Of a DNA stretch of 64,000 nt, positions 3,819 through 50,515 are shown piece after piece. The notes beneath the pieces were generated by a model. It searched no databases. It saw only the letters and a list, made by a program, of their open reading frames with translations, and was not told the DNA's origin. Source of the DNA: Acidobacteriota bacterium (GTDB lineage: Bacteria; Acidobacteriota; Thermoanaerobaculia; UBA5066; Gp7-AA6); the NCBI GenBank assembly GCA_039933215.1, contig JBDTOO010000015.1, positions 4,501 to 68,500 of the forward strand, written 5' to 3'. The position numbers were made by a program, and so were the translations under genes. How positions within the stretch are numbered: the first letter of the stretch is position 1; every line of letters starts with the position of its first letter.

Positions 3819-4094
3819 CTATCGGTTGATGAGTTCTTTCAGCTCTTTTCCCGGCTTGAAATAGGGAATCTTCTTCGCGGGAACGGACACCTTGACGCCG
3901 GTCTTCGGGTTTCGTCCCATCCGTGCGCCCCGCTCGCGGAGGCGAAACGATCCGAATCCCCGAAGCTCGATCTTCTGGCCTTCCTTCAGGGAGCGGACGA
4001 TCGCGTCGAAGACGGTGTCGACGATCGCCTCCGCCTGCTTCTTGGTCACGTCCGTCGCGACGGCGACGCGCTCGATCAGCTCCGCTTTGGTCAT
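3819..4094 (-). CDS. ihfB: Integration host factor beta-like / HU-family DNA-binding protein
   Basis: 91 aa with the GFGSFRLRERGARMGRNPKTG DNA-binding arm. It lies immediately downstream of cmk–rpsA, as does ihfB in the E. coli cmk–rpsA–ihfB operon. Confidence 0.75.
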   Translation of the reverse strand: MTKAELIERVAVATDVTKKQAEAIVDTVFDAIVRSLKEGQKIELRGFGSFRLRERGARMGRNPKTGVKVSVPAKKIPYFKPGKELKELINR

Positions 4095-4190: not shown

Positions 4191-6053
4191 TCAGCTCTTC
4201 GGAGTCGCGTCTTCCGCCTTCTTGCGGACACGCTTCTTCTTTACGGCAGGCTCGGGCTCGGCGGCCGGTGCCGCCTCTTCGGATGCCGCCTCGGCTGGCG
4301 CTGCAGCGGGCTCGGGCTCGGAGGACGCGGCCGCGCTCTGCGCCACCGCTTCGGGCGCGTCGGCGGCCTCGCCGGCGGACGACGCCTCGCCGGCCGCCGG
4401 CGTCTCGGCGGGGGCACCCGCCTCGACGTTCTGGCCCGAGAGGCCGACCTTCATCTCCGCGTCCTCGATCCGGAGGATCCGGGCGCGGACGGTATCGCCT
4501 TCCTTGTAGTGCTCCTGGGGCTTCTCGCCCCGCTCGACGGGAGTCTCGGAGACGTGCATCAGGCCTTCGACGAGCCCCTCGATCTGCACGAAGACGCCGA
4601 AGTCCGCCACGCGCGTGACGACGCCGTTCACGACGTCGCCCGCCTGGAAGCGCTCCTTGAAGGTCTGCCAGTCGTTCGGCTGGAATTCCTTGATCGAAAG
4701 AGAGATCCGCCGGTTCTCCTGGTCGATCGACGTGATGATCGCCTCGACGTCGTCGCCCTTCTTGAGAACCTCGGAGGGATGCTTGATGCGCTTCGTCCAC
4801 GACATGTCGGAGACGTGCACCAGTCCGTCGACGCCTTCCTCGATCTCGACGAAGGCCCCGAAATCCGTGAGGTTCCGGACCTTACCGCTGACGCGGCTTC
4901 CGATCGCGTACTTCTCGACGACGCTCTCCCACGGGTCCGGCAGCGTGTCCTTGAGGGACAGCGAGATGCGGCGGGCGTCGCGGTTGACGTCCGAGACGAT
5001 CGCCTCGACCGTGTCGCCCGGCGAGACGACCTTGGAGGGGTTCTTGACCTTCTTCGACCAGGACATCTCGGAGACGTGGACGAGACCCTCGACGCCCTCC
5101 TCGAGCTCGACGAAGGCGCCGTAGTCGGTCACGTTGGTGATCCGGCCCGTCACGCGCGATCCCGTCGGATACCGCTCCGGAACGTGGCTCCAGGGGTCTT
5201 CGGTCAGCTGCTTGGTGCCGAGCGAGACGCGCTCGGTCTCGCGGTCGAACTTCAGGACGACGACGTCGATCTCGTCGCCGACTTTCACCAGGTCGGAGGG
5301 GTGGTTGACGCGGCCCCAGGACATGTCGGTGACGTGGAGGAGGCCGTCGAGGCCTCCCAGATCCACGAACGCCCCGTAGTCCGTGAGGTTCTTGACGACG
5401 CCGCGCAGGACGCGTCCCTCTTCGAGGAGCTGGAGGGTCTCTTTCTTCTTCGCCTCCTGCTCGACTTCGACGACGGCCTTGCGCGAGAGAACGATGTTGC
5501 CCCGCTTCTTGTCGACGGAGATCACCTTGAAGTCGAGGTCCTTGCCGCGCAGGGACTCGAGGTTCTTGACGGGCTTGACGTCGACCAGGGAGCCGGGAAG
5601 GAAGGCCTTGACGCCAATGTCGACGGCGAGACCACCCTTGATCCGGTCGATGACCCGGCCGCGGACGGTCGAGCCCGAGCGGTACGACTTCTCGACTTCG
5701 TCCCAAACCTTCATCTTTTCGGCCTTGTCCTTCGAGAGGACGACGTAGCCGTTCTGGTCTTCGGTGCGTTCCAGCAGGACGTCGACGGCGTCTCCGGGCT
5801 TGACCATCACGTTGCCCGAGAAATCCGTGAACTCGGAGACGGGGATCATCCCTTCGGACTTGTAGCCGATGTCGACGATCACTTCTGAGGGCGTCACCGT
5901 CAGGACGCGTCCCCGGATGATCTGGCCCTCCTGGAGATTCTTGAACGAGTTTTCGTACTGAGCCAGGAGGTGCTCGTATTCCTGGGGCGTCATTTCCTGA
6001 TCCATTTCCATCGACTCGGTTTCCCGACCTCCTCTGTCGTTTTCAGCCTTCAT
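4191..6053 (-). CDS. rpsA: 30S ribosomal protein S1
   Basis: 620 aa with repeated S1 domains. Ala/Pro/Glu-rich C-terminal tail ending in a KKKRVRKK basic patch. The first ATG may be slightly upstream of the true start. Confidence 0.9.
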   Translation of the reverse strand: MKAENDRGGRETESMEMDQEMTPQEYEHLLAQYENSFKNLQEGQIIRGRVLTVTPSEVIVDIGYKSEGMIPVSEFTDFSGNVMVKPGDAVDVLLERTEDQNGYVVLSKDKAEKMKVWDEVEKSYRSGSTVRGRVIDRIKGGLAVDIGVKAFLPGSLVDVKPVKNLESLRGKDLDFKVISVDKKRGNIVLSRKAVVEVEQEAKKKETLQLLEEGRVLRGVVKNLTDYGAFVDLGGLDGLLHVTDMSWGRVNHPSDLVKVGDEIDVVVLKFDRETERVSLGTKQLTEDPWSHVPERYPTGSRVTGRITNVTDYGAFVELEEGVEGLVHVSEMSWSKKVKNPSKVVSPGDTVEAIVSDVNRDARRISLSLKDTLPDPWESVVEKYAIGSRVSGKVRNLTDFGAFVEIEEGVDGLVHVSDMSWTKRIKHPSEVLKKGDDVEAIITSIDQENRRISLSIKEFQPNDWQTFKERFQAGDVVNGVVTRVADFGVFVQIEGLVEGLMHVSETPVERGEKPQEHYKEGDTVRARILRIEDAEMKVGLSGQNVEAGAPAETPAAGEASSAGEAADAPEAVAQSAAASSEPEPAAAPAEAASEEAAPAAEPEPAVKKKRVRKKAEDATPKS

Positions 6054-6144
6054 GCGAAGGAGAATCCCCTCTCATAAGTATTTGAGATGCAAAAATATAG
6101 TCTACTTTGGGCCCGCGAGCCGAGTCAACCGGCCGCTCCCGCCG

Positions 6145-6822
6145 TCAGGCCGTCGAAAGGACCCGTTTCTCGATCTCCCGGACCACCCCTTCGGCCGTCA
6201 GACCGTCCGTTTCGATGAGGACGTAACTCGGGTCCAGGGTCAGCGGCGAGTCGGCCCGGGTCGCGTCGTCGCGGTCCCGCTGCTCCATCTCCGCGAGGAC
6301 CTTCTCGTACGGCTCGGCCGTGCCGCGGCGGGCGAGCTCCAGGGCCCGGCGGGCGGCCCGGACGCCGGGCGGAGCGGTCAGGAAGAACTTGTAGGGGGCC
6401 TCGGGGAACACCTTCGTGCCGATGTCGCGCCCCTCGAGGACCCCTCCCCTCTCGCGCCCGAGCCGCTGTTGCTCGGACACGAGCCGGCGGCGCACGGCCG
6501 GAATCGCCGAGATCGCGGAGGCGTAGAGCGAGATCTCCGGCTCCCGGATCGCGTCCGTGACGTCCCGATCGTCCAGGTAGACCCGGGCCCCGGCCGGGTC
6601 CGGCAGCAGCTCGACCCGGACGGACTCGGCGACCGCCGCGGCGGCCGCGGGGTCCGCGAAAGGGAGGGTCAGGCCGCGCTCGCGCGCCGCGAGACCGACG
6701 GCGCGATACATGGCTCCGGTGTCGATGTAGGGCACGCCGAGCCGGGCCGCGAGGGCGCGGGCGACCGTGGACTTTCCCGCGCCGGAGGGGCCGTCGATCG
6801 CGACGATCAGCCCCGCGCTCAT
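6145..6822 (-). CDS. cmk: Cytidylate kinase
   Basis: Internal ATG verified at 6820-6822 (MSAGLIVAIDGPSGAGKST P-loop). The N-terminal 250 aa of ORF 6145..7581 are Arg-rich out-of-frame overlap with rluB and are rejected. Confidence 0.9.
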   Translation of the reverse strand: MSAGLIVAIDGPSGAGKSTVARALAARLGVPYIDTGAMYRAVGLAARERGLTLPFADPAAAAAVAESVRVELLPDPAGARVYLDDRDVTDAIREPEISLYASAISAIPAVRRRLVSEQQRLGRERGGVLEGRDIGTKVFPEAPYKFFLTAPPGVRAARRALELARRGTAEPYEKVLAEMEQRDRDDATRADSPLTLDPSYVLIETDGLTAEGVVREIEKRVLSTA

Positions 6823-7649
6823 CGAGGGGGACGGTCCGCGCGCCGGGGCGCCTTGCGGGCCGGCCGCGGCGCCTCCCGGGTCTCGCGGACGGCCGGGGTC
6901 GGCTTGCGCGCCGCGGCGAGCGACGCCTTCAGGGCCCCGACTTCGGCGGGCGACAGGCGCCGGACGCGGCCGGAGGCGAGCGCGTCGTCCCGGATCGGCC
7001 CGATGGCGACGCGCTTCAACTTCGAGACCTGGTGCCCGATGATCTCGAACATCCGACGGATCTGGCGGCTTCGCCCTTCGCGCAGCGTGACCTTGAACCA
7101 GGCGTTGCCCTCCCCCCGCCCCGCGGTCGTGCGCACCTCCTCGATGTCGCAGGAGCGCGTCGAGCGGCCGTCGAGGACGATCCCTCGCCGCAGTCTCGCG
7201 AGGTCTTTCTCGGCGGGGACGCCGGAAACCTTGACGCGATACTCCTTGGCGCAGCTCATCGAGGGATGCGTGACGTCCCGGGCGAGGTCGCCGTCGTCCG
7301 TCAGGAGAATCAGTCCCTCCGTTCCCACGTCCAGGCGCCCGACCGGGCGCACGCCGCCCCGAAGACTGCCGGGCACGAGATCCATGACGGTGTCGCGCTT
7401 CTCGGGATCCGACATCGTCGTGACGTAGCCCTTCGGCTTGTTCAGCAGCAGATAGGTCTTCTCGACGGGCGGCGCCTTGATGCGGCGCCCGTCGACCTTG
7501 ACCGCGTCGCGCTCGGGGTCCGCCTGGTCGCCCAACTTCGCGACCCGGCCGTTGACGGTCACGCGCCCGTCGCGGATCCACTCTTCGGCGAGTCGCCGCG
7601 AGGCGAGGCCCGCCTGGGAGAGAAGCTTCTGGATGCGGGAGGCCGTCAT
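6819..7649 (-). CDS. rluB: 23S rRNA pseudouridine synthase (RluB-like, S4 + RsuA domains)
   Basis: 276 aa. N-terminal S4 domain (QKLLSQAGLASRRLAEEWIRDGRVTVNG). Catalytic pseudouridine synthase core (GRLDVGTEGLILLTDDGDLA). Basic C-terminal tail. 4-nt overlap with the cmk start. Confidence 0.8.
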   Translation of the reverse strand: MTASRIQKLLSQAGLASRRLAEEWIRDGRVTVNGRVAKLGDQADPERDAVKVDGRRIKAPPVEKTYLLLNKPKGYVTTMSDPEKRDTVMDLVPGSLRGGVRPVGRLDVGTEGLILLTDDGDLARDVTHPSMSCAKEYRVKVSGVPAEKDLARLRRGIVLDGRSTRSCDIEEVRTTAGRGEGNAWFKVTLREGRSRQIRRMFEIIGHQVSKLKRVAIGPIRDDALASGRVRRLSPAEVGALKASLAAARKPTPAVRETREAPRPARKAPRRADRPPR

Positions 7650-22718: not shown

Positions 22719-23507
22719 TCAGGATTCCGCGCTGAAGAACGTGAGAGGGACGAGGCCGAACTTCAGGACGTCGGCGTTCTGGATCGCCATGGGAGCGCCC
22801 GTGGCGAGACGCTGATCATTGACGAACGTGCCGTTCATGACGCCGATCTCCTCCATCACGTAAAACGTTCCGGCCATCTGGTAGAGCTTCGCGTGGCGCC
22901 GCGAGGTCGAGCGCTGAGTGTCGAGCGGCGTGAGGTCGATGTCGGGAGTGATTCCCGTGACGGGGTCGGCGCGTCCCACGAGGGTATCGCCTTCACGGTT
23001 GAGGAAGAACTCGGGAGTCCCGTTCGCGCCGACGAGGCGGAACACGTCCTTGTGGACGACGGGTTTTCGCGACGGCGGCCTTTCCTCGTCCGGAACGCGG
23101 CGGCCGAGGGCTTCTTCGAGCATCGTCGAGACGTCCCGGACGCGGCGCGAGAGCTTTCGCATCATCCGGATGGCGATCTCCGTGTTGCTGCGGAGCATCG
23201 TGTCGAACATCGCGCCGTTGATCCGCACCACCTCGACGTCCGACTTCGCCCGCGCCGACGCGCTGCGGGGCAGATCCTCGAGGACGCTCATCTCGCCGAA
23301 GAAGTCGCCCTTCTCGAGAGTCGCGAGGACACGGCTCTCCCCCGCGATCGACTTGAAGAGCTCGACCACTCCGGACTGGATGATGTACATCTCGGTCCCG
23401 ATCTCGCCCTCGGAGAAGATGATGTCTCCCATCGGGTGGCTGACGATGTACCGCTCGAAGGGATTCTTGCCTCCGGCCGCGGTCCCCGACTTGAAGACGG
23501 CTTTCAC
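22719..23507 (-). CDS. Cyclic-nucleotide-binding domain protein fused to a C-terminal FHA domain
   Basis: N-terminal cNMP-binding fold (GEIGTEMYIIQSGVVELFK...GDFFGEMSVL). C-terminal FHA fold (TLVGRADP...RRHAKL...GTFYVMEEIGVMNGTFVNDQRL). Confidence 0.7.
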   Translation of the reverse strand: MKAVFKSGTAAGGKNPFERYIVSHPMGDIIFSEGEIGTEMYIIQSGVVELFKSIAGESRVLATLEKGDFFGEMSVLEDLPRSASARAKSDVEVVRINGAMFDTMLRSNTEIAIRMMRKLSRRVRDVSTMLEEALGRRVPDEERPPSRKPVVHKDVFRLVGANGTPEFFLNREGDTLVGRADPVTGITPDIDLTPLDTQRSTSRRHAKLYQMAGTFYVMEEIGVMNGTFVNDQRLATGAPMAIQNADVLKFGLVPLTFFSAES

Positions 23508-25439: not shown

Positions 25440-26042
25440 TCAGGCGGTCTCGCCCCGGTGGCGGCGCGGATGCTGGATGCGGAAGAAGAGGACCTGCAGG
25501 GCCCGGCGAACTCTCGCGCCGTGCATGACGAGGACCGCGACGAGGGCCGCCAGGAAGAGCGCGGTGAGCCACGGCTGGAAGAAGAGCAGGATCGCGAGCA
25601 TGATCGCGACGATGTCCTCCGCGATCGACAGAACGAGCTGGGCGAACCCACGCGTGGCGGCGGTCGACGTGAGGCGGCTCGTGGATTTCGCCGCGTGCGC
25701 CGCCAGCGTCACGACGGCGGCGAGGGCCGCGACGCCGATCTTCGCCGCGAGCGAGACTTCACCGAGTGCCGCGAGCGCGAGGAGCGAGCCGACGATCGGC
25801 CTCAGGAGCGTCTGCGCGGCCTCCCAGAATCGATCGGCGAGGGGAATCTTGGTCACGACGAATTCCGCGAGGAACATCACGATCGACAGCTGGAGGATCG
25901 CCGGGCTCGCGAGGAAGGCGGCCACCCCGCCGGGGAAGTCCTGCGGCAGGAGGCGATAGAGCCCGTTGTACACGAGGAGAACGGACCACGCGTTCAAGCC
26001 GGCCGCGGCCGCGAGGCCGAGGCCGGTGAGCAGGGGGATCAA
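25440..26042 (-). CDS. DUF4126-family membrane protein
   Basis: Hydrophobic C-terminal 200 aa of ORF 25440..26435 (IPLLTGLGLAAAAGLNAWSVLLVYNG...). Proposed TTG start at 26042 overlaps the stop of the upstream gene (TTGA). Confidence 0.6.
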   Translation of the reverse strand: MIPLLTGLGLAAAAGLNAWSVLLVYNGLYRLLPQDFPGGVAAFLASPAILQLSIVMFLAEFVVTKIPLADRFWEAAQTLLRPIVGSLLALAALGEVSLAAKIGVAALAAVVTLAAHAAKSTSRLTSTAATRGFAQLVLSIAEDIVAIMLAILLFFQPWLTALFLAALVAVLVMHGARVRRALQVLFFRIQHPRRHRGETA

Positions 26043-27685
26043 TTCCGCTGCCGGAAGAGGCGGGAGAAGAGACCCGGGCGGTCGGACGAAGGAGCGGCAT
26101 CGGCCGCGCCGGGCGTCCCCTCTTCCGCGGGATTCTCCCCCGCCTCGGAGGCTCCGAAGCTGGCGTCCGCGAGCGTGAGGGAATCCGGCGCCTTTTCGGG
26201 AAGTGCTCCGAGAAGGATCTGGTCGAGCAGCTCCTGGTTCTCCGGCGTGGGCGCGAGATCCACGGCCCGGCGCGCGAACGTCTCCGCCTCGTCGTCCCTC
26301 CCGTGCTGGTGCAGGGCGCGAGCCGCCGCCCGGATGTAGGGCACTCCGCGCGGAGACAGCCTCGCCGCCTCTTTCAGGTTTTCCAGGCCCTTGGAGATCC
26401 ACATCGAGTTCTTCAACTCGACCATGCCCAGGCAAAGGCGGTACTCCGGATTGTCGGGGACGAACCGGATCGCCTCGCGCAGCATCTCGACCGCGGGATG
26501 AAAGTCCTTCTGCTCGATCAGCTCCCGCGCGCGCGTGAAGCTCTGCCTGGCGAGATTCTTTCGGATCTCCGGGTCGGTGGACGTCTCCGCGACGGCGACC
26601 GAGACAGGAGCGGCGTCGAGGGTGTCGTCGTACTCGGCGCGCCGGGCCGGATCCGACAGGACCTCGTGCGCGAGCTTCAGCCGGTCGAACACCGCCGTCA
26701 GCTCCTTGGCGAACTGCGCGAGGTCGTCGCGGTGGCGCAGGTCCGGATGGAACAGGCGGCTGCGCTCGAAGTACGCCTTGCCAATCTGTTCATCGGATGC
26801 GTTGGCCGGCACGCCCAGGAGCTCGTAGTGCGTGAGCCAGTCGATTCGGCGGTAGGTGTTACGGACGAGCTCGGAGTGACCCGGCGTGCCGTCGCGCGGC
26901 TGCGCGTCGACGACGACGTTCAAGCCTTCGAACCCGCCGGCGACCCGGGGAGCGACGCCGTCCTTCTTCCATTCGACGATGCCGCAGGAGAAGAGCGCAT
27001 AGAGAGTCTTGGCCGTCGCGCCGCGCGAGCCGCCGCCGATCTTGAGGAGGGACTCGAGATCGAGCGCGCCGTCGATGCGGGAGAGGAGATAGGCCTCCTG
27101 CGGCGTCAAGGGAAGGTACTGGTAGCGGGACATCGGATCGGTCGAGAGGATCGGCACCGAGCGCGCCTCGCCGAGCCGGCGCAGGAAGGCCTCGCCCTCC
27201 GGAAGCCGGCGGATTCCCTCGACGATGATGGCGGCGGTCGACAGGGTCAGCGCGACGTCCGGGTCGAGCACTCCCGTCGAGGACTGGAAGCGATATTCCC
27301 CCTCTTCCCACTCGAAGGTCGAGAACACGATCTCCTCGACCAGGCGCCGCATCTCCGCGTCGAGGACCTGGCGGGACACCAGACCCTTCTCCACGAGGAT
27401 CTTTCCGAGACGCGCCCGGCCCTGGCGCGCGACCGTCTCGAGCGCCCACGAGAGGTCCTCGTCGGTGATCCAGCCGCGCCGCTTCAGGAAGGCGCCGATC
27501 CTCTGGCCCTCCCGCGACGAAGTCGCCGTGCGCAGCTCCCCCTTCTCGAAGAAGAGGTGGCGCGTCTCATCGCCGCGGACGAGGGTCAGGGTTCCCTTCA
27601 GCCCCTCGAGGAAGATCCGGCGAAGGACCTGAGGGAGGGGCGTTTCCGCCAGAGAGCCGCGAAATCCGGCGCGCGCTGTGTTCAT
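26039..27685 (-). CDS. DUF4388 (PATAN-like) domain protein with J-domain and TPR region
   Basis: 548 aa. N-terminal DUF4388-like segment (PLPQVLRRIFLEGLKGTLTL). DnaJ J-domain with HPD (YELLGVPANASDEQIGKAYFERSRLFHPDL). TPR-like C-terminus. Confidence 0.75.
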   Translation of the reverse strand: MNTARAGFRGSLAETPLPQVLRRIFLEGLKGTLTLVRGDETRHLFFEKGELRTATSSREGQRIGAFLKRRGWITDEDLSWALETVARQGRARLGKILVEKGLVSRQVLDAEMRRLVEEIVFSTFEWEEGEYRFQSSTGVLDPDVALTLSTAAIIVEGIRRLPEGEAFLRRLGEARSVPILSTDPMSRYQYLPLTPQEAYLLSRIDGALDLESLLKIGGGSRGATAKTLYALFSCGIVEWKKDGVAPRVAGGFEGLNVVVDAQPRDGTPGHSELVRNTYRRIDWLTHYELLGVPANASDEQIGKAYFERSRLFHPDLRHRDDLAQFAKELTAVFDRLKLAHEVLSDPARRAEYDDTLDAAPVSVAVAETSTDPEIRKNLARQSFTRARELIEQKDFHPAVEMLREAIRFVPDNPEYRLCLGMVELKNSMWISKGLENLKEAARLSPRGVPYIRAAARALHQHGRDDEAETFARRAVDLAPTPENQELLDQILLGALPEKAPDSLTLADASFGASEAGENPAEEGTPGAADAAPSSDRPGLFSRLFRQRN

Positions 27686-42610: not shown

Positions 42611-43475
42611 TTCGACCTCCGGGAGGCGTAGTTCGCGACACGTACTCGGCTCGTCCGAGAGTCCGGGTCCGCTCGAAGCGCGCCTCAGGGTGACGTTGCG
42701 CCAGCCAGCTCTCGGCCCCGGTGCCCGCCCCGATCAGAACGACCGTGGAGCCCGAGCCGGTGAGGCTCGAGTCCGAGCCGACTTGTCGAGCGGATTCCAG
42801 ATAGGCCTTCATCGCACCCTCTACCTCTAGCACGGCGGATGCCAGTTCATTTGGCCCGAAGAACTTTCCAGAAGTCTCGAGGTCGAGACGCTCGGCAACG
42901 CGCGCGCCCTCGCCGGTCCTTCGCGCGTGGGCCTCGAAGACCTCGCGCGTCGAAAGGGGAAAGGGCGGAATGAGAAGAAGGAGCTCGGCCGCCGGGGCGT
43001 CCGGTCGGGGAACCACGTGTTCTCCCCTTCCGGAAACGTCCGCATCGCCGCCGACCAGGAAATAGGGAACATCGCTGCCAAGGGTCGGAGCGACCCTCGA
43101 AACGATCTCCCCGGAGGGGTCGACGTCCCACAGGCGCCGCAGGAGGCGGAGCGCCGCGGCGGCGTCGGAGCTGCCGCCCCCGAGCCCCGCGCCGACGGGA
43201 ATGCGCTTGTCGAGGACGATGCGGGCTCTCGGCTCGACGCCGGCCTCGAGCGCGAGCCCGCGCGCCGCGCGGAGAACGAGGTTGCTCTCTCCGCAGTCGA
43301 GCGGCTCGCCGCGGCAAAGGAGCTCGAGCCGGTCGGAAGCCTCGACCGTCAGGGTGTCGGAGAGATCGATCGACGAGAATCGGGAGAGAAGATCGTGGAA
43401 CCCGTCGCTCCGCCGCGCTCCCACGCGCAGCTCCCGGTTGATCTTGGCCGGCGCGTCGGCGCTCCACGCGCTCAA
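42573..43475 (-). CDS. ispE: 4-diphosphocytidyl-2-C-methyl-D-erythritol kinase
   Basis: 300 aa. GHMP kinase motifs (KRIPVGAGLGGGSSDAAAAL; GSGSTV). The 3' end overlaps the spoVG start by 38 nt. Confidence 0.85.
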   Translation of the reverse strand: MSAWSADAPAKINRELRVGARRSDGFHDLLSRFSSIDLSDTLTVEASDRLELLCRGEPLDCGESNLVLRAARGLALEAGVEPRARIVLDKRIPVGAGLGGGSSDAAAALRLLRRLWDVDPSGEIVSRVAPTLGSDVPYFLVGGDADVSGRGEHVVPRPDAPAAELLLLIPPFPLSTREVFEAHARRTGEGARVAERLDLETSGKFFGPNELASAVLEVEGAMKAYLESARQVGSDSSLTGSGSTVVLIGAGTGAESWLAQRHPEARFERTRTLGRAEYVSRTTPPGGRNGHYPGQSLPGR

Positions 43476-44116
43476 CGCAGGGACTCCCGCGCCTGCAGTG
43501 TCAGCTGGAGGCGGCTCGCGCTCGACCGTTCCTCGATCGAGACTTTCCTCGGCCAGGGGTCGGCCGTCTCCCCATAGGACGCTTCGTAGGTCCGGCCGTC
43601 GCGCTCGACCCGCAGCGACGCGAAGCGCGCCTGAGCGAGGTTCAGGACCCCCTCGGCGCGGGCCGGGCCCGACCAGACGAGGAGCGCGTCGCCTCCCAGG
43701 ATGCCGCGGACCTGCGGGTCCGGATCCTTCCAGATTCCCGCGAGGAGCCAGAGGAGCGGCTCCGGCTCGATGACGACGGGCGCGAACTTCTCGCCGCGAA
43801 GCGCCCCGTTCTCGTAGACGGCGACGGGCGACCCGAATGGTCCGGTGATGGTGGCGCGGACCGGATCGCCCGTCGTCACCGCGAGAGTTCCCGGCAGCGA
43901 CGCGAGCCCCTGGCTGAGCTTCGCGTCGTACAGGAGGCGGGAGGGCCCCAGGGAGTCCGCCCGCGCGACCGCTTCGCGCCAGGCGGCGAGGGCGAGGGAT
44001 ACCTGCTCCGCTCCGGCGGGACCGAAAGACCTGGCGGGCCGGCGGGCCGCGCAGCCGCTGATTGCGAGCAGGAGGGCGCCGAGCGTGACGGCCGCGGCGG
44101 CTCGCGTGCGGATCAG
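43472..44116 (-). CDS. LolB-like outer-membrane lipoprotein (start apparently CTG)
   Basis: The reading frame of ORF 43472..43879 stays open upstream and encodes (L)IRTRAAAAVTLGALLLAISGC, a lipobox signal peptide. No ATG/GTG/TTG occurs in any frame between the TPR-gene stop and the signal peptide. CTG at 44116 with GAGG 9 nt upstream is the best initiator. Position upstream of ispE matches the common lolB–ispE order. Confidence 0.5.
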   Translation of the reverse strand: MIRTRAAAAVTLGALLLAISGCAARRPARSFGPAGAEQVSLALAAWREAVARADSLGPSRLLYDAKLSQGLASLPGTLAVTTGDPVRATITGPFGSPVAVYENGALRGEKFAPVVIEPEPLLWLLAGIWKDPDPQVRGILGGDALLVWSGPARAEGVLNLAQARFASLRVERDGRTYEASYGETADPWPRKVSIEERSSASRLQLTLQARESLR

Positions 44117-44126
44117 CGGCGGCGCC

Positions 44127-46040
44127 TCAGCGGGTGGCGCCGGCGATCTTCGCGCGGGCGCGGTTCAACTTCTCCTGCACCTTGGCGGGCTCGTCCGGCT
44201 TGAGCGTCAGGGAGCGCTCGAAATGGCGGACGGCTTCGTCGGCCCGGCCCTGCCGGTCGGCGAGATCTCCGAGATGTTCCTCGATCGTCGAGTCGTCGGG
44301 CTCGCGGCGCTGCGCCTCCATCAGGTTCTTCTCGGCCGCCGCGAAGTTGCCGAGGCGGAAGTCCGCCCACCCGAGGGAGTCGCGGTACGCGCCGTTGCGC
44401 GGCTCGCGGGCGACGGCCTTCTCCAGGAGATTGCGCGCGCGCTCGAGGTTCTCGCCCCGGTCCGCCCACATGTATCCGAGGTAATTCATCGTCGCGGCGT
44501 CGTTCGGCTTGGCGTCGAGCATCTTCAGGAAGATCTTCTCGGCTTCGGCCGGGGAGCCTCCGCGCTCGAGGCTCGAGGCGAGGCGGAACTGCACTTCGGA
44601 GCTCTCGGGATACCGCTTCGCCGCCTCCCGCGAGATCCGCACGGCCGTCGCGAAGTCCTTCACGCGGGCGGCGGCATCGGCGGCGGCCATCGCGCGCTCG
44701 AGCTCCGGCGAACCGGCCATTTTGTCGAAGGCGGCGACGGCGCCGGCCCGGTCGCCGGTGCGGTGGAGGAACTCGCCGACCGCGGCTTCCCACTCGGGAT
44801 TGCCCGGCTCGGCGGCCGCGGCGGCGCGCGCGGCGGCGAGGCCCGACGGGTACTCCGCGGAATCCCGCGCCACGGCGAGCAGGAGGCGTACCGCGCGCGC
44901 GTCGACCGGCCGGCCGGCGACGATCGGCTCGAGCGCCTTCCGGGCGGCCGGGTAATCCTTCTGGAGATAGGCGGCATACGCGAGCTCGCGCGTCGCCCAG
45001 GTCTTCTGGTCGGCGGCCTTGGGATCGGCGCCGGCGCGCTTCAGGCTGTCTTCGAAGAGGGCGCGCGCCTCGGGGAGTCGGTGCTCCCGGAGAAGCTCGT
45101 TCGCGAGCGCCCGGCGCGTTGCCTCGTCTTCCGGGTCCGCCTGGAGGAGGTCGCGGAGGATCTTCTCGCCGCCGGCGCCGTCCCCCTTCTCGAAGAGGAC
45201 CTGGGCGAGGAGACGGCGGATGTCGCGGTTCTCGGGGCGGCGGGTCGCGAGCTCGCGGGCGCGCTTCTCCGCCTCGTCGAAACGACCGGCGCGCGCGAGG
45301 TCGAGAGTGATGCGCTCGGAAACCGCCGGGTTCTCGGGGTCCTTCGCGGCCAGGTCGGAGAGCAGCTTCAGGGCTTCGTCGTAGCGGTCGTCTTCCTCGT
45401 AGACGTCGATGAGCGCCGCCGCGATCTCGCGGTCGGTCGGGTCCAGGGCGAGGAGCTGCTGGTACAGGACCTCCGCGTCGCGCGAGCGTCCGCTCTTCGC
45501 GCGGGCCTCCGCGGCGATGCGGACGAGGGCGGGCTGCATCCGGGTCTCGGGAACCTCGTCGAGAAGCTGCGATGCCTCGGCCGCGCGGCCCCGCGTGAGC
45601 AGCGCTCGCGCGAGAGCCGCCACCGTCGAGAGGTCGCCCGGCGCGAGCTTGCGGGCCTGCCGCAGCTCCTCGATGCCCCTGTCGACCGCGGCCGGGTCCT
45701 TCTCCCCCGCGGCGATCTCGAGCGTTCCGAGAAGGCGGTGGGCCTCGGCCATCTTCCCGTCGAGCCGGATGGCTTCCCGGGCCTGCTTCACCGCTTCGTC
45801 CTGAACGTTCAGGTCTCGCAGGAGCTGCGCGTACTCGTAGCGGACCACGGCGTCGTCCGGGCGGCGCTCGATCACCTTGCGATAGAGGTCGAGGGCCTCC
45901 TTGTACTGGCCGTCCGCGACGGCGCCGCGGGCGCGCAGGTACATGCGGCGGAAGTCCCGTTCGCCGTCGGGAGCCGGGGCCGTCGGCGGAGCGGGAGCAA
46001 GAGTCGCCGCGAGGATGAGCGCGAGGAAGAAGGGCCTCAT
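44127..46040 (-). CDS. Secreted tetratricopeptide-repeat protein
   Basis: 637 aa. Signal peptide MRPFFLALILAATLAPAPP. More than 12 TPR-like repeats. Confidence 0.75.
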   Translation of the reverse strand: MRPFFLALILAATLAPAPPTAPAPDGERDFRRMYLRARGAVADGQYKEALDLYRKVIERRPDDAVVRYEYAQLLRDLNVQDEAVKQAREAIRLDGKMAEAHRLLGTLEIAAGEKDPAAVDRGIEELRQARKLAPGDLSTVAALARALLTRGRAAEASQLLDEVPETRMQPALVRIAAEARAKSGRSRDAEVLYQQLLALDPTDREIAAALIDVYEEDDRYDEALKLLSDLAAKDPENPAVSERITLDLARAGRFDEAEKRARELATRRPENRDIRRLLAQVLFEKGDGAGGEKILRDLLQADPEDEATRRALANELLREHRLPEARALFEDSLKRAGADPKAADQKTWATRELAYAAYLQKDYPAARKALEPIVAGRPVDARAVRLLLAVARDSAEYPSGLAAARAAAAAEPGNPEWEAAVGEFLHRTGDRAGAVAAFDKMAGSPELERAMAAADAAARVKDFATAVRISREAAKRYPESSEVQFRLASSLERGGSPAEAEKIFLKMLDAKPNDAATMNYLGYMWADRGENLERARNLLEKAVAREPRNGAYRDSLGWADFRLGNFAAAEKNLMEAQRREPDDSTIEEHLGDLADRQGRADEAVRHFERSLTLKPDEPAKVQEKLNRARAKIAGATR

Positions 46041-46138
46041 GCGAACGAATCTAGCATGCGGGGTGCCAGCGGAAGGGTTGCCCGTGCGGCCGGCTCGGCG
46101 GGCGACCGGAACGTTCTACGCCATAATCGGAGGCGACC

Positions 46139-47542
46139 ATGCCCCGCCTCGGCCAGCTGCTCGTGCGAGCCGACCTCGTATCGGAGAACAACCTCGCCCG
46201 GGCGCTCGGCGTGCAGAATTTCGCAGGGGGCCGGCTCGGAACGCTGCTGCTCGAGAGAGGCTCCGTGAGCGAGGACGAACTCGGCAAGACGCTCGCGCAG
46301 CAGCATGGGTGCGAGTACGTGCCGTGGCGGCTTCTCGCCGACGTTCCGATGGGGACGATCGCGGCCCTCCCGGCGAAGTTCGCGATCAAGCATTCCGCGG
46401 TGCCCTACGACCGCTCCGAGAACGTCCTGAAGCTCGTCCTGCGGGATCCTTCGGATCTGCGGATCTTGGACGAGCTCTTCTTCGTGACGGGCCGCAAGAT
46501 CATCGCGGGCGTCGCGCCGGAGGTTCGCGTCTACCAGGCGCTCGAGAAGTACTACGGCGAGAGGCGTACCCCGCGCTTCGCCATCCTCGCCGAGAAGCTC
46601 TCGCGCCCCGTTCGATCCGCCCGGAGCGAGACGAGCGCCCCGCCTCCCCCGCCGAGCTTCTTTCCCGAGACCGAGCGCGCGGAGGAGCGGCTTCCGGACG
46701 CGCAGGAAATCTGGGGCGACTCGTCGGACGCCGATCTGGCGCTGGGCCCTCCGATCGTCCAGTCGTGGCGGACGACGACGGAGCCGCACGGCGGATGGGC
46801 CGGGACCTCCTCCCAGATGGGCGATGCCCGGCTGTCGGGGGACGTCGACGCGATCTCCTGGGAGGAGATGCCGCCGGCGGCCCCCGGCCCGCCCTCCGCT
46901 TCCTCCGCTTCCTCCGCGACGCCGGCGCTCGGCGCCGGGTCGGCTCATGAATCCCCCGCTTCTCCGCAGGCCCCCTCCGTGCCTGCTCCCGCCGCGCGCC
47001 CGGCGCCGGTCGCCGGATTGCCCCCGATGGCGGCGCCTCCGGAGCGGGCTATGCCGAGAACGGCGGCAGCGGACGACTTCACAGCGATCGCGGAGGCGAA
47101 CGACCGGGACACGATCGCGGTCGCTGCCCTGTCCGCGATGGCCCCCCGTTTCGTGCGGTCCGCGCTCTTTGCGGCGCGGCCCGACCGCGTCCAGGGCTGG
47201 GCGGGCGGCGGCGAGCTCGATCCCGTTCGGATCCGCGCGATCGCGATCCCCTGGAAGGAGGGGTCGGTCTTCCTGAACGTGCGCCTCTCCCGGTCCTTCT
47301 ATCTCGGCCCCCTGCTGCGGCTCCCCCGGCACGAGGATCTCGCGCTCGCGACGGGGGGCTGGCCGGAGGAGTGCGTCGTGATGCCCATCCTGATCCAGGA
47401 CAAGCCGGCCGCCTTTCTCTACGCCGAGGGCCCCGCCGAACGGGGGGTCACCCCGATGGACCTCGTCTTCCTGCGGGAGCTCTCCCGGGCGGCCGCCGCG
47501 GGGCTCTCGCGGGCCATCCGTATGAAGAAGAAAGAGATATAA
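46139..47542 (+). CDS. MshEN/T2SSE_N-type N-terminal domain protein with disordered linker and GAF-like C-terminal domain
   Basis: Two tandem 24-aa motifs RLGQLLVRADLVSENNLARALGVQ and RLGTLLLERGSVSEDELGKTLAQQ match the c-di-GMP-binding MshEN consensus (RLGxx[LVI][LVI]xxG[LVI][LVIF]xxxxLxxxLxxQ). The C-terminus is GAF-like. Confidence 0.7.
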   Translation: MPRLGQLLVRADLVSENNLARALGVQNFAGGRLGTLLLERGSVSEDELGKTLAQQHGCEYVPWRLLADVPMGTIAALPAKFAIKHSAVPYDRSENVLKLVLRDPSDLRILDELFFVTGRKIIAGVAPEVRVYQALEKYYGERRTPRFAILAEKLSRPVRSARSETSAPPPPPSFFPETERAEERLPDAQEIWGDSSDADLALGPPIVQSWRTTTEPHGGWAGTSSQMGDARLSGDVDAISWEEMPPAAPGPPSASSASSATPALGAGSAHESPASPQAPSVPAPAARPAPVAGLPPMAAPPERAMPRTAAADDFTAIAEANDRDTIAVAALSAMAPRFVRSALFAARPDRVQGWAGGGELDPVRIRAIAIPWKEGSVFLNVRLSRSFYLGPLLRLPRHEDLALATGGWPEECVVMPILIQDKPAAFLYAEGPAERGVTPMDLVFLRELSRAAAAGLSRAIRMKKKEI

Positions 47543-47568
47543 TTGCGGGAGCGCACTCGGAGGCAGAG

Positions 47569-47838
47569 ATGATCAAAGCGGACATCGTCGATCTCGTGGT
47601 CGACCTCGCAGCGATTCCCCGCGCGAAGGCGGCGACGGCCGTCGAAACGGTGATCGAGTCGATGCGGTCCGCCCTGGGCGCGGGAGATCGCATCGAGTTG
47701 CGCGGTTTCGGCGTGTTTCAGGTGAAGCGGCGCAAGCGCGGCATCGGCCGCAACCCCAAGACCGGCGTCGAAGTGACCATTCCTCCGGGCAACACCATCC
47801 GGTTCAAGCCGGGCAAGGACCTCCGCGACCTGCCCTGA
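47569..47838 (+). CDS. HU/IHF-family DNA-binding protein
   Basis: ATG at 47569 with GGAGG 8 nt upstream. MIKADIVDLVV...RIELRGFGVFQVKRRKRGIGRNPKTGVEVTIPPGNTIRFKPGKDL. The upstream part of ORF 47371..47838 is rejected. Confidence 0.8.
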   Translation: MIKADIVDLVVDLAAIPRAKAATAVETVIESMRSALGAGDRIELRGFGVFQVKRRKRGIGRNPKTGVEVTIPPGNTIRFKPGKDLRDLP

Positions 47839-47859
47839 TGCCTTAGAATAAGGATCCGC

Positions 47860-49488
47860 ATGGCACCGCGCCGGATCGGCGAGCATCTCGTGTCGGAAGG
47901 GATTCTTTCGGAGTCCGAGATCCACCGTGCGCTCGGGTTCCAGCGGCTCTCCGGAGAGCGGCTCAAGCTGGGCAGCATCCTGCTCCACTGGGACCTTCTG
48001 GACGAAGAGGCGCTGCTTACGGCCCTCTCGAGCCTCCACCGGACACCCGCGGTGACCTGGGCGATGCTCGCGGAAGCGCCGTTCGAGGCGGTCCGCCTGC
48101 TGCCGGCCGCCCACGCGCTCCGTCTCGGCGCGATCGCCTGGGGCGCCGAAAGAGGCCTGGTCCGCGTCGCGTTCACGAACCCCTCCAACCTCGCCGTGAT
48201 CGACGAGGTCGCCGCTCTCGTCGGGCGCCGCGTCGTTGCCGGCGTGACGACGGAAGTCCGTCTCTTCCAGGCGCATCAGAAATTCTTCGGACGCCACGTT
48301 CCGCTTCAATACCGCGCGATCGTTCAGAAGCTCGATCGCCCGGCGGCCGGCCGGCCGCCGGCGCGGCGCGACTTCCGCGCCACCGACGTCGTCCAGGCCG
48401 AGCGGGAGGTTCGCTCCTCGGGCTCCGCGGGCGCCCTCGAGATCCCGGTGACGCCCGAAGCGGGCGCCGCGGCGGACGACGCGCGCCTCGTCCTGCCGCC
48501 CGTCGAGCCTCCCGAGCTGCCGGACCTTCCCGAGCTCGCCGAGGTGGCCGACGCGCCGGACGCGGCCGCTGTCGACGCCTCCCCGGCGGACGACTCGCTC
48601 TCGGACTGGGTCGGCGAGGCCCTGTCCGCATTTACCGACGGACCCGCCGCGCGAGATCCGGAATCGCCAGCCGGCGTCGCCGATCCTTCGCAGTTCGGAC
48701 GGCACGGCGAGCCCCCTCGTCCCGGACCTCTCGCCGTTTACGAAGACGATCTGCCTCAGACCAACATGGTGCGCGCGCGGGTGGAAGAGAAGGCGCGGCT
48801 CTCGGCGCAGGCCTCTCCCCTGACCGACGAGCACCGGCGCGGCGTTCCCGACTCGATCCCTCCGTTCCGGCGGGCGAGCGACCCGATCGGTCCATACGCC
48901 AATCCGGCACCGTCCGGCGATCCCGCGGAGGGCCTGTGGAGGCGGGCGGATGACAGCGTAGCGTCGCCCGCGGCCGAATCGCTCTGGAAGATCGAAGCGG
49001 ACGGCTCCGAGCCCGGGGCCTCCGAGGCCCGCAGCCGCGACGACGTCGCGGATTCGGTCCTCGAGAGCTACCTCGGCGAGCTCCCGCGCGTGGTGCTCCT
49101 CGGGGCCGGTAAGAACGGCATCACGGGATGGCGGGGCCGGGCGCCCGGGCTCACCGCCGAAGCGGTGTTGAAGATCCGGATCTTCCCCTCCGAGATCTCC
49201 GTGTTCACCGCCGTCCAGGAGTCCGGAGTGCCGCACTTCGGCGCGGTCGACCGGTCCGAATGGCCTCGCGCGCTCGCGACGCTCTTCGGCGGGAACCCGC
49301 CCGAATGCGCGATCTTTCCCGTCCGGGTTCTGGACGGGATCGCCGCGTTCCTCTACGCGGACCGCCTGGGGTCGCCCATGCAATACGAGGACTTCGCTCT
49401 CGTCGCCCGCGCCGCCGGCTCGGCCGCCGGCGTCCTCTCCCAGTTCCTCCTCCGCCGCCGCCGCTCCGACACGACGCACGTCGGCTGA
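47860..49488 (+). CDS. Paralogous MshEN/T2SSE_N-type N-terminal domain protein with GAF-like C-terminal domain
   Basis: RIGEHLVSEGILSESEIHRALGFQ matches the MshEN motif exactly, followed by a degenerate second copy. Same architecture as 46139..47542, including the ...LDRP linker junction and an AFLYA(D/E) C-terminal GAF-like block. Confidence 0.7.
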   Translation: MAPRRIGEHLVSEGILSESEIHRALGFQRLSGERLKLGSILLHWDLLDEEALLTALSSLHRTPAVTWAMLAEAPFEAVRLLPAAHALRLGAIAWGAERGLVRVAFTNPSNLAVIDEVAALVGRRVVAGVTTEVRLFQAHQKFFGRHVPLQYRAIVQKLDRPAAGRPPARRDFRATDVVQAEREVRSSGSAGALEIPVTPEAGAAADDARLVLPPVEPPELPDLPELAEVADAPDAAAVDASPADDSLSDWVGEALSAFTDGPAARDPESPAGVADPSQFGRHGEPPRPGPLAVYEDDLPQTNMVRARVEEKARLSAQASPLTDEHRRGVPDSIPPFRRASDPIGPYANPAPSGDPAEGLWRRADDSVASPAAESLWKIEADGSEPGASEARSRDDVADSVLESYLGELPRVVLLGAGKNGITGWRGRAPGLTAEAVLKIRIFPSEISVFTAVQESGVPHFGAVDRSEWPRALATLFGGNPPECAIFPVRVLDGIAAFLYADRLGSPMQYEDFALVARAAGSAAGVLSQFLLRRRRSDTTHVG

Positions 49489-49576: not shown

Positions 49577-50515
49577 ATGAGGGACGACGATGTGCCGACG
49601 GCACCGGACGGGGGCGAGCCCGCACCGCCACCGGTCCAACGGCGGAGAGGCTGGCTTCCCTGGCGATTTCCGTACGCGGAGCATCCGCTCTTTCATCTGG
49701 CTCTCCTCGTCCTGACCTTCTGCACCACGACGTTCGCCGGCGCGCTCTTCTTCAGCGAAGCGCCGGACTTCCCCGGGCGGCTCGAAGCGGGCCTTCGGTT
49801 CTCGATCCCTGCCATGCTCATCCTGGGCGTCCACGAGATGGGGCATTACCTGATGTGCCGCCGCTACGGGCTCGCGGCGACGCGGCCGTACTTTCTTCCC
49901 GCCCCCACGCTCTTCGGCACGCTCGGAGCGGTCATCCGCATCAAGGAGCCGATCCGGAAGAAGACGGTCCTTCTCGACATAGGGGCCGCCGGACCGCTCG
50001 CGGGATTCGTGACGGCGCTTCCCTTCCTCTTCTACGGCGTGACGCGCGCCATCCCGATCCGCACTCCGCCGGACCCCGGCGTGCAGGTGTTCGGCTATCC
50101 CCTGGCCGTCCGCTTCGCGCAGGATTGGACGGGGATGGCGCGGTACACGAGCGCGGGGGTCCACGAAGATCCGACCTTCATGGCCGCCTGGCTCGGTCTT
50201 CTCGTGACGGCGCTGAACCTTCTCCCGATCGGCCAGCTGGATGGAGGCCATGTCCTGCGGGCGGTTCTCGGAAAGAGGCAGCCGATGGTGTCGCTGGCCG
50301 TGCTCGCGTGTGCTCTGGCGGTGGCGTTCCGAGGCGGCTACACGTGGGCGATCTTCGCGGCGATCGTCGGAGGGCTGCTCGGGGTCGCGCATCCGCCCGT
50401 CGAGGACGACGACGAGCCGATCGGTACCGGCCGGCTCACGATCGCGCTCGTGTGCCTCGCCGTGTTTCTGCTCTGCGCGACGCTGGTGCCGCTCGGCCCC
50501 GTTTCAGAGAAATAG
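49577..50515 (+). CDS. Site-2 protease family (peptidase M50) membrane metalloprotease
   Basis: 312 aa, polytopic. HEMGHY (HExxH) motif and LNLLPIGQLDGGH second motif. Confidence 0.7.
   Translation: MRDDDVPTAPDGGEPAPPPVQRRRGWLPWRFPYAEHPLFHLALLVLTFCTTTFAGALFFSEAPDFPGRLEAGLRFSIPAMLILGVHEMGHYLMCRRYGLAATRPYFLPAPTLFGTLGAVIRIKEPIRKKTVLLDIGAAGPLAGFVTALPFLFYGVTRAIPIRTPPDPGVQVFGYPLAVRFAQDWTGMARYTSAGVHEDPTFMAAWLGLLVTALNLLPIGQLDGGHVLRAVLGKRQPMVSLAVLACALAVAFRGGYTWAIFAAIVGGLLGVAHPPVEDDDEPIGTGRLTIALVCLAVFLLCATLVPLGPVSEK

Follow-up and report, generated by a model that had tools for sequence, protein, structure and literature searches.

The sequence analysed here is a 64-kb stretch (hereafter the window) of an uncultured Acidobacteriota genome with a G+C content of ∼70%. 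It carries two genes, here called A and B, for paralogous proteins in which an MshEN domain, a type of receptor for cyclic di-GMP (c-di-GMP), is joined by a long linker to a C-terminal GAF-fold domain, and a small HU/IHF-family gene lies between them. The genes and the parts of their products are as follows (aa, amino acids; ORF, open reading frame):

46139..47542, forward strand: gene A, MshEN-linker-GAF protein, 467 aa (ORF and gene call)
46139..46609, forward strand: A residues 1-157, complete MshEN domain with a conserved EKYYGERRTPRFAILAEKLSR tail (PF05157, phmmer, family conservation)
46145..46303, forward strand: A residues 3-55, predicted c-di-GMP site, two motifs of 24 residues separated by NFAGG, 5 residues (gapless MshE alignment, NF053729)
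46610..47068, forward strand: A linker, ∼153 residues (about 158-310), variable in length (composition P 18%, A 18%, S 12%)
47069..47539, forward strand: A residues 311-467, GAF-fold domain (predicted model)
47559..47563, forward strand: GGAGG ribosome-binding site of the HU/IHF gene (read from the sequence)
47569..47838, forward strand: HU/IHF-family gene, 89 aa (ORF, PF00216 at 86.7 bits)
47860..49488, forward strand: gene B, paralogous MshEN-linker-GAF protein, 542 aa (ORF and gene call)
47872..48036, forward strand: B residues 5-59, motif I RIGEHLVSEGILSESEIHRALGFQ and variant motif II KLGSILLHWDLLDEEALLTALSSL, separated by 7 residues (73 homologues, PilB alignment)
48340..49029, forward strand: B linker, ∼230 residues (about 158-395) (composition A 17%, P 13%, D 10%)
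49030..49485, forward strand: B residues 391-542, GAF-fold domain (AlphaFold2 and Foldseek against PDB)

The product of A is identical to a metagenome-assembled genome (MAG) entry of NCBI ('MAG: hypothetical protein ABI592_05310 [Acidobacteriota bacterium]'), and in a public contig with the identical protein independent gene calls agree on A, the HU/IHF gene and B, followed by an M50 peptidase. At least 388 homologues of A and 84 of B were found.

Both proteins begin with an MshEN domain. The Pfam model PF05157 scored above its gathering threshold (23.1 bits) in A (46.5 bits, residues 74-143) and in B (35.7 bits, residues 73-145), and NF053729, the NCBIfam model of the c-di-GMP motifs (cutoff 38), was passed by A (48.7) and just missed by B (35.6). 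Comparison of residues 1-160 with solved structures using phmmer matched A to Thermus thermophilus PilF (6.6e-26), Myxococcus xanthus PilB (7.8e-20), Vibrio cholerae MshE (5HTL, 1.7e-11) and also Geobacter PilB; the matches to PilF, PilB and MshE span residues 3-146, with residues 3-139 aligned to residues 9-145 of 5HTL. The corresponding region of B matched PilF (1.9e-18) and 5HTL (1.2e-12). In both proteins the PilB, PilF and MshE alignments extend to residues 139-148, and thus the alpha/beta MshEN_C subdomain is present together with the N-terminal four-helix ligand-binding part. No T2SSE (PF00437) ATPase domain was matched in A or B at a Pfam E-value of ≤1, the PilB and GspE equivalog models picked up no more than the N-terminal region, with scores far under their cutoffs, and domains other than MshEN and GAF-type ones were not detected in either protein by Pfam or NCBIfam. 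The best full-length NCBIfam match of A was the MshEN region of NfrB. A preliminary description of this DNA, made from the letters alone, had placed MshEN-type motifs at both N-termini apart from any type II secretion or type IV pilus ATPase; the Pfam results bear this out, and the motif strings it quoted (A residues 3-26 and 32-55, B residues 5-28) were correct.

According to Wang et al. (2016; PMC5013675), two 24-residue motifs with five residues between them make up the MshEN site; in each motif, R1, L2, G3, L17, L21 and Q24 are ligand contacts or members of the Leu clusters, and the helix turn is at G10. Residues 3-57 of A align without gaps with residues 9-63 of V. cholerae MshE (5HTL), and all 12 key residues are identical. 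Across 118 homologues, these positions were kept in 98-100%, counting conservative L/I/V exchanges, and every homologue also had a spacer of five residues (118/118). Position 10 of motif I, the turn Gly, is Asp in A, and in the family it is Asp (44%), Gly (38%) or Asn (9%). Judged from this alignment, A is quite likely to bind c-di-GMP via its two tandem motifs, as V. cholerae MshE does.

Motif I is intact in B (R, I, G, G10, I17, L21 and Q24) and nearly invariant among 73 homologues (R in 98%, I or L at the next position, and G, G10 and Q24 in 100%). Motif II of B reads K-L-G at its start and has L17 and L21, with Asp at position 10 and Leu at position 24. Among the same homologues its first residue was K (80%) or R (17%), G, L17 and L21 were present in 100% and Trp9 in 97%, and two sites varied: position 10 was Asp, Glu or Tyr, and position 24 was Leu, His or Phe, never Gln. 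The spacer was seven residues long in all of them (73/73). B aligns without gaps to Geobacter PilB (PDB 5zfr, 6olj and 5tsg), which has an equal spacer, the motif II of B being located at 47965-48036. The five-residue spacer of MshEN thus appears not to be universal, because Geobacter PilB also carries seven. The second motif of B had been called degenerate in the preliminary description; it is certainly altered, but as a conserved variant with a spacer of seven rather than five residues and not by random decay. Both motifs of A and the variant motif of B are under strong purifying selection (118 and 73 sequences, respectively).

Published affinities provide some guidance on what these changes might mean. 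PilF's three GSPII domains show affinities of 6 nM, 460 nM and no binding; GSPII-B binds at 6 nM with Lys at motif position 1, and GSPII-A, in which one motif is good and the other degenerate, shows no c-di-GMP binding (PMC11731258). In an earlier study, as cited in PMC5013675, changes of charged or polar residues including Gln32 shifted the affinity at most ∼fivefold. From the motif comparison, the chances that B binds c-di-GMP at all appear evenly balanced, and its binding would probably be weaker than or different from that of A.

The C-termini of A and B match each other with a BLASTP E-value of 9e-8 and ∼30% identity, which confirms the suggestion that the two proteins are paralogous. The AlphaFold2 model of the C-terminal domain of B had a pLDDT of 93.7 and a pTM of 0.88, and the Foldseek PDB matches listed for it were all GAF or GAF-fold structures (3eea, DosS GAF-A, 3oov and 5w10; probability 1.00, TM up to 0.72). 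On the predicted models, the C-termini of both A and B have the GAF fold, a six-stranded antiparallel sheet packed on helices. At the sequence level, Pfam GAF_2 (gathering score 28.6) gave 17.7-20.4 bits for A and no match for B, and it was found at E≤0.01 in 14 of 28 family C-termini (best 9.2e-8). Hence the GAF-like C-termini proposed before hold at the level of predicted fold, but not by the Pfam sequence threshold. An alignment of 28 sequences from the wider family revealed four invariant residues (G358, S376, F378 and G390, in the numbering of A) and six conserved in at least 90% (W354, H398, P409, C412, P416 and Y428), a pattern which suggests a functional site. Free methionine-sulfoxide reductases of GAF type use two or three Cys; this function was rejected for the domains studied here, in which only one Cys (C412) is conserved.

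Protein length in the family varies from 436 to 644 aa for A and from 465 to 624 aa for B, and this variation sits in the linkers. The linkers are of low complexity, in agreement with the long disordered linkers described previously, but they are not featureless: conserved islands were found in A (PPPPxFF, IxQxW, GWAG and IsWEEmP) and in B (DSLxxWVGEAL, ippfrr and MWrp), and several of them are centred on Trp. Such islands may represent short linear binding motifs.

A and B are members of a large, uncharacterised MshEN-linker-GAF family. At E≤1e-3, a profile of the GAF-like domain detected 4,502 clusters (formed at 50% identity), of which 1,962 remained at E≤1e-10; among the top 150 representatives nearly all full-length ones were 400-560 aa long and started with MshEN-type motifs, and the taxon names of family members included Thermoanaerobaculia and 'candidate division NC10'. 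With regard to known systems, A and B have the same MshEN_N and MshEN_C domain as MshE (5HTL), M. xanthus PilB, Geobacter PilB and PilF, whereas the T2SSE ATPase of these secretion and pilus proteins is replaced by a long low-complexity linker and a GAF fold. Several MshEN domains fused to non-ATPase partners bind c-di-GMP with dissociation constants from 14 nM to 0.5 uM (PMC5013675), and Supplementary Table 4 of that study lists several such proteins, including the NfrB glycosyltransferase, PA3740, FrgA (MshEN-UNK-HEAT) and MshEN-REC. In these proteins, as in A and B, MshEN is a portable c-di-GMP input module on various outputs; A and B differ from them in having a C-terminal GAF domain and no enzymatic output. 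MshEN with a C-terminal GAF domain does not occur in that table, whose only GAF entry is GAF-MshEN-T2SSE, with an N-terminal GAF domain and the ATPase present. Canonical GAF domains (Lcd1 5w10, PtsP 3trc, PDE2A, DosS GAF-A and the Geobacter GAF/HD protein 3eea) are only 8-19% identical to those of A and B and sit N-terminal to an effector, whereas here the GAF is the last, C-terminal domain. PilF offers a further parallel: its GSPII-A/B/C domains are MshEN paralogues whose affinity for c-di-GMP is graded or lost (PMC11731258), although they lie in a single polypeptide upstream of an ATPase, whereas A and B are two proteins, each with its own GAF domain. A and B are a new variation on a known type of receptor, and their anatomy is solid.

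The small protein encoded between A and B belongs to the HU/IHF family (PF00216, 86.7 bits against a cutoff of 22.4), and its GRNPKTG sequence fits the GRNPxTG arm motif. Its best NCBIfam models were those for IHF-beta (80.4, cutoff 115) and IHF-alpha (74.7, cutoff 111), ahead of HU (61), and all three scored below cutoff. A GGAGG element is located 5 nt upstream of its ATG, and the earlier claim of a small HU/IHF gene with a strong ribosome-binding site is therefore sustained by both the Pfam score and this element. Constraint on this paralogue is unusually strong: over 64 loci carrying B it is 93-100% identical, compared with only ∼50% for A and ∼40-55% for B in these loci, and in loci with a single MshEN-GAF gene it is 61-80% identical.

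One genome per GTDB species was searched with a full-length alignment, and the best 80 of 229 relatives were examined, all of them Thermoanaerobaculia/Acidobacteriota MAGs. The counts below combine loci from this genome scan with loci fetched through individual proteins and include only loci with enough sequence; individual loci are denoted by L numbers. The HU gene directly followed the A-type gene in 74 of 78 loci (median gap between aligned segments 30 nt), and a B-type gene followed HU in 64 of 71 (median gap 43.5 nt), with M50 next; the succession of A, HU and B that had been pointed out in the window is therefore kept elsewhere. In nearly all loci M50 follows B, or follows HU where there is only one MshEN-GAF gene, and the TPR gene lies upstream of A, including in the distant single-copy loci. 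Seven loci (L005, L006, L080, L084, L085, L087 and L089), whose N-domains are 37-44% identical to that of A, have the order MshEN-GAF, HU, M50 and no B. As these more distant loci carry a single MshEN-GAF gene ahead of HU and M50, B probably originated by a lineage-specific duplication within the clade, with the new copy placed behind HU. A neighbour-joining tree, a weak method, grouped A with B and set the single-copy clade apart. What the preliminary description noticed is thus correct and plainly no product of chance. Two loci showed local irregularities. In L053, a Thermoanaerobaculia MAG, ∼1 kb (5127-6155) separates the A-type and HU genes, compared with ∼30 nt elsewhere, which suggests an insertion into the operon. 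In L089, the gene after MshEN-GAF (6407-6907) was called as a 166-aa HU-family protein of about twice the usual length, reflecting either an N-terminal extension or a miscalled start site.

The other features of the window that bear on the locus are the following:

46117..46128, forward strand: TACGC(C/G)ATAATC element, -10-like, candidate promoter (upstream alignment of 19 loci)
49577..50515, forward strand: M50-family (site-2-type) metalloprotease (PF02163 at 74.7 bits, conserved gene order)
44127..46040, reverse strand: TPR protein, 637 aa, with a hydrophobic signal-like N-terminus, divergent from A (multiple TPR families)
3822-4094, reverse strand: second HU/IHF-family gene, 91 aa, IHF-beta-like (PF00216 at 118.7 bits; IHF-beta 115.8 against a cutoff of 115)

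A, the HU/IHF gene, B and M50 are all encoded in the same direction, separated in order by 26, 21 and 88 nt. When the 110 nt preceding the A-type genes of 19 loci were aligned, the TACGC(C/G)ATAATC element stood out; it is recognisable in the window and in ∼12 of the 18 other loci (among them L013, L020, L022, L025, L026, L032, L048, L052, L055, L062 and L071). It ends 11 nt before the ATG of A in the window and about 9-12 nt before it across loci, and the bases in between are unconserved between loci and frequently lack a Shine-Dalgarno sequence. The pattern suggests a -10-like box, which would make the leader very short or absent; alternatively, the element could be an operator. A scan with the sigma-70 consensus found no full promoter, and scans for sigma-70 promoters and intrinsic terminators found no site between A, HU and B; two terminator-like matches inside the M50 gene were at chance level. 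Because of the short gaps, the terminator-free scan and the single conserved -10-like element upstream of A, the A, HU and B genes, and possibly M50, look co-transcribed. Control of the locus by a riboswitch or other RNA was rejected after an Rfam scan of 43-53 kb, which was empty at E≤0.1.

Several further genes of the window deserve mention. A 135-aa ORF without a Pfam match (43472-43879, reverse strand) lies between ispE and the TPR gene, and the same slot holds a Pfam-less gene in L001 (186 aa), L002 (231 aa) and L003 (119 aa). A 548-aa protein (26039-27685, reverse strand) contains DUF4388 (78.9 bits), a DnaJ domain and TPR repeats; a myxobacterial MshEN-HD-GYP-REC-DUF4388 protein listed by Wang et al. 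(PMC5013675) has DUF4388 and MshEN together. In addition, a 262-aa protein (22719-23507, reverse strand) combines a cyclic-nucleotide-binding domain (82.5 bits) with FHA, as a sensor of second-messenger type. The second HU/IHF gene lies directly downstream of a 620-aa ORF at 4191-6053 (reverse strand), and the two HU/IHF proteins of the window are 41% identical to each other. It follows from the presence of this gene that the HU protein between A and B is not the sole nucleoid protein of the organism.

The domains, the conservation of the motifs, the GAF fold on predicted models, the paralogy of A and B and the gene order of the locus were established in this analysis; from them we infer ligand binding and co-transcription, and any coupling to HU would likewise be an inference. 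We consider it rather probable that A and B are cytoplasmic, ATPase-less MshEN-linker-GAF receptors acting by protein contacts. A would take up one c-di-GMP through its tandem 24-residue motifs in the fashion of MshE, and B, as a lineage-specific duplicate whose second half-site has been changed in a conserved way, would be a paralogue of modified affinity. Because there is no enzymatic or DNA-binding domain in A or B, their output would have to be protein-protein interaction. The presence of c-di-GMP on the N-terminal MshEN bundle may alter the way in which a partner is bound by MshEN_C, the conserved islands of the linker and the GAF domain, and/or the GAF-mediated homo- or heterodimerisation of A with B. 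The two genes would be co-transcribed with the IHF/HU-like gene and possibly with that of the M50 protease. Our best single guess for the target of A and B is the co-transcribed IHF/HU-like dimer, a tentative choice whose chances are well below even. Direct functional coupling of A and B to HU is unlikely, and so is a reading in which they attach to the IHF/HU-like dimer itself and thereby switch how it binds or bends DNA, with A as the canonical and B as the altered-site receptor setting two c-di-GMP thresholds. The c-di-GMP-nucleoid links described in the literature searched are only CdbA/CdbB of M. xanthus, which are c-di-GMP-binding nucleoid-associated proteins (PMC7156744), and the disputed case of H-NS (PMC10657408, PMC12162814). 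CdbA is itself the receptor and has a ribbon-helix-helix fold, whereas here the candidate receptor is a separate MshEN-GAF protein and the DNA-binding protein has the HU/IHF fold. The HU/IHF protein between A and B has no known c-di-GMP motif, so it does not qualify as a receptor of the CdbA type.

A number of observations weigh against this interpretation. With respect to the ligand, Asp or Asn replaces the turn Gly10 of A motif I in about half of the family, and some MshEN-like domains are non-binders, namely PilF GSPII-A and XpsE, the latter reported not to bind c-di-GMP (PMC5013675); by analogy this is a warning for B. GGDEF, SGDEF and HD-GYP-type motifs were absent from all six frames of the 64-kb window, and the Rfam scan contained no c-di-GMP riboswitch. 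With respect to the GAF domain, NKFDE is the cyclic-nucleotide-binding signature of phosphodiesterase GAF domains; by inspection it was not seen in the C-terminal sequences of A and B, and a role of the domain as a cyclic-nucleotide binder is accordingly unsupported. With respect to HU, the linkage is limited to Thermoanaerobaculia and relatives, and the adjacency could be inherited synteny, because the order of the surrounding ∼13 kb is also conserved (on one flank L25, prs, spoVG, ispE, a small hypothetical gene and TPR; on the opposite flank M50, dtd, murJ, ssb and a GH3 gene). No HU gene was found beside three MshEN-GAF members of distant subfamilies, whose neighbourhoods contain Era/Der/RNase III, PriA/OEP and VWA, respectively, or at L086, a more distant locus in the genome scan. 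The second HU/IHF gene in the window also weakens the coupling to HU. Finally, the literature searched on MshEN in connection with GAF domains, the nucleoid and Acidobacteria yielded no characterised member of the family, no paper on this architecture and none on MshEN proteins in Acidobacteria. The preliminary description had taken the three genes to be a c-di-GMP-responsive nucleoid or regulatory module. Given a syntenic linkage limited to one clade, the second HU/IHF gene and the window free of GGDEF and HD-GYP motifs, this claim was not upheld; the module is unproven, since HU is missing beside distant members and synteny extends over the entire region. The link to HU would rest on conserved, tightly spaced and probably co-transcribed genes, and such a pattern is inseparable from inherited synteny.

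Three other explanations should be considered. The HU/IHF gene may be a housekeeping neighbour, with the order of MshEN-GAF, HU and M50 reflecting inherited synteny and the targets of A and B encoded elsewhere, and we give this possibility only slightly less than an even chance. In GspE/PilB-type ATPases, partners are bound through the MshEN_C (T2SSE_N1-like) part (EpsE-EpsL); A and B could therefore be c-di-GMP-dependent competitors or adaptors, a role that has been proposed for PA3740 and other ATPase-less MshEN proteins, with targets such as proteins of the type IV pilus or of a secretion platform. Such an explanation fits the equal conservation of ∼13 kb of flanking genes, the unrelated, HU-free contexts of the distant subfamilies, and the identity of 93-100% for HU against ∼50% for A in loci with B, as is typical for a core gene under constraint of its own. 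The N-domains of A and B also match PilB and PilF best, and PA3740 and FrgA are ATPase-less MshEN precedents in motility (PMC5013675 supplement). However, the linkage persists down to ∼31-44% identity of the MshEN-GAF protein and has outlasted a duplication that placed B after HU and not elsewhere; the intergenic gaps are very short with no terminator found; and no pilus or secretion gene was present among the ∼20 window ORFs scanned (a minority of the ORFs of the window) or in the neighbourhoods read.

The remaining two explanations concern the signals that are sensed. GAF domains are classic small-molecule sensors, and the nearest structural neighbours of the A and B C-termini include cAMP-, cGMP-, haem- and bilin-binding GAFs. 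It might thus be that MshEN serves here as a structural or interaction module without c-di-GMP sensing and that the GAF domain is the real sensor, of another small molecule or cofactor. The conservation of S376, F378, G390, H398, C412 and Y428 across the wider family would fit a functional site of this kind, and non-binding MshEN-like domains do exist. Nevertheless, we regard this as quite improbable: the contact and cluster residues of A are all identical to those of MshE and 98-100% kept or conservatively replaced, which would be hard to explain without the ligand; NF053729, a model specific to the c-di-GMP motifs, passes its cutoff in A; and no known GAF ligand motif is recognisable. Alternatively, the proteins could integrate two inputs, MshEN sensing c-di-GMP and GAF a second signal, and an A/B heterodimer would set two thresholds for a common output. 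In favour of this, MshEN and GAF are each conserved, the variant half-site of B is under selection (position 24 never Gln, Trp9 97%, spacer always 7), A and B are always adjacent wherever B exists, and PilF, with GSPII domains of 6 nM, 460 nM and no affinity (PMC11731258), provides a precedent. The heterodimerisation and the GAF ligand are, however, purely inferential, and we consider this model possible but doubtful.

If A and B do switch the HU/IHF-like dimer, c-di-GMP would for the first time be connected through MshEN to chromosome architecture or global transcription, and such an HU/IHF-family protein would have its first known regulator protein. Their position beside the IHF/HU-like gene makes this a concrete and cheap hypothesis, although the present evidence is insufficient to establish the link. 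Few c-di-GMP receptor domains are predictable at the sequence level, and MshEN is one of them; for most of its fusions to partners other than an ATPase, no output is known. If A binds c-di-GMP, it would offer a simple two-domain receptor for studying MshEN signalling without an ATPase, and the A/B pair represents a natural experiment on the second half-site, in which B has Leu in place of Gln24, Trp9 and a spacer of seven residues. Members of the family abound in uncultured Acidobacteriota, and second-messenger biology has hardly been explored in this phylum.

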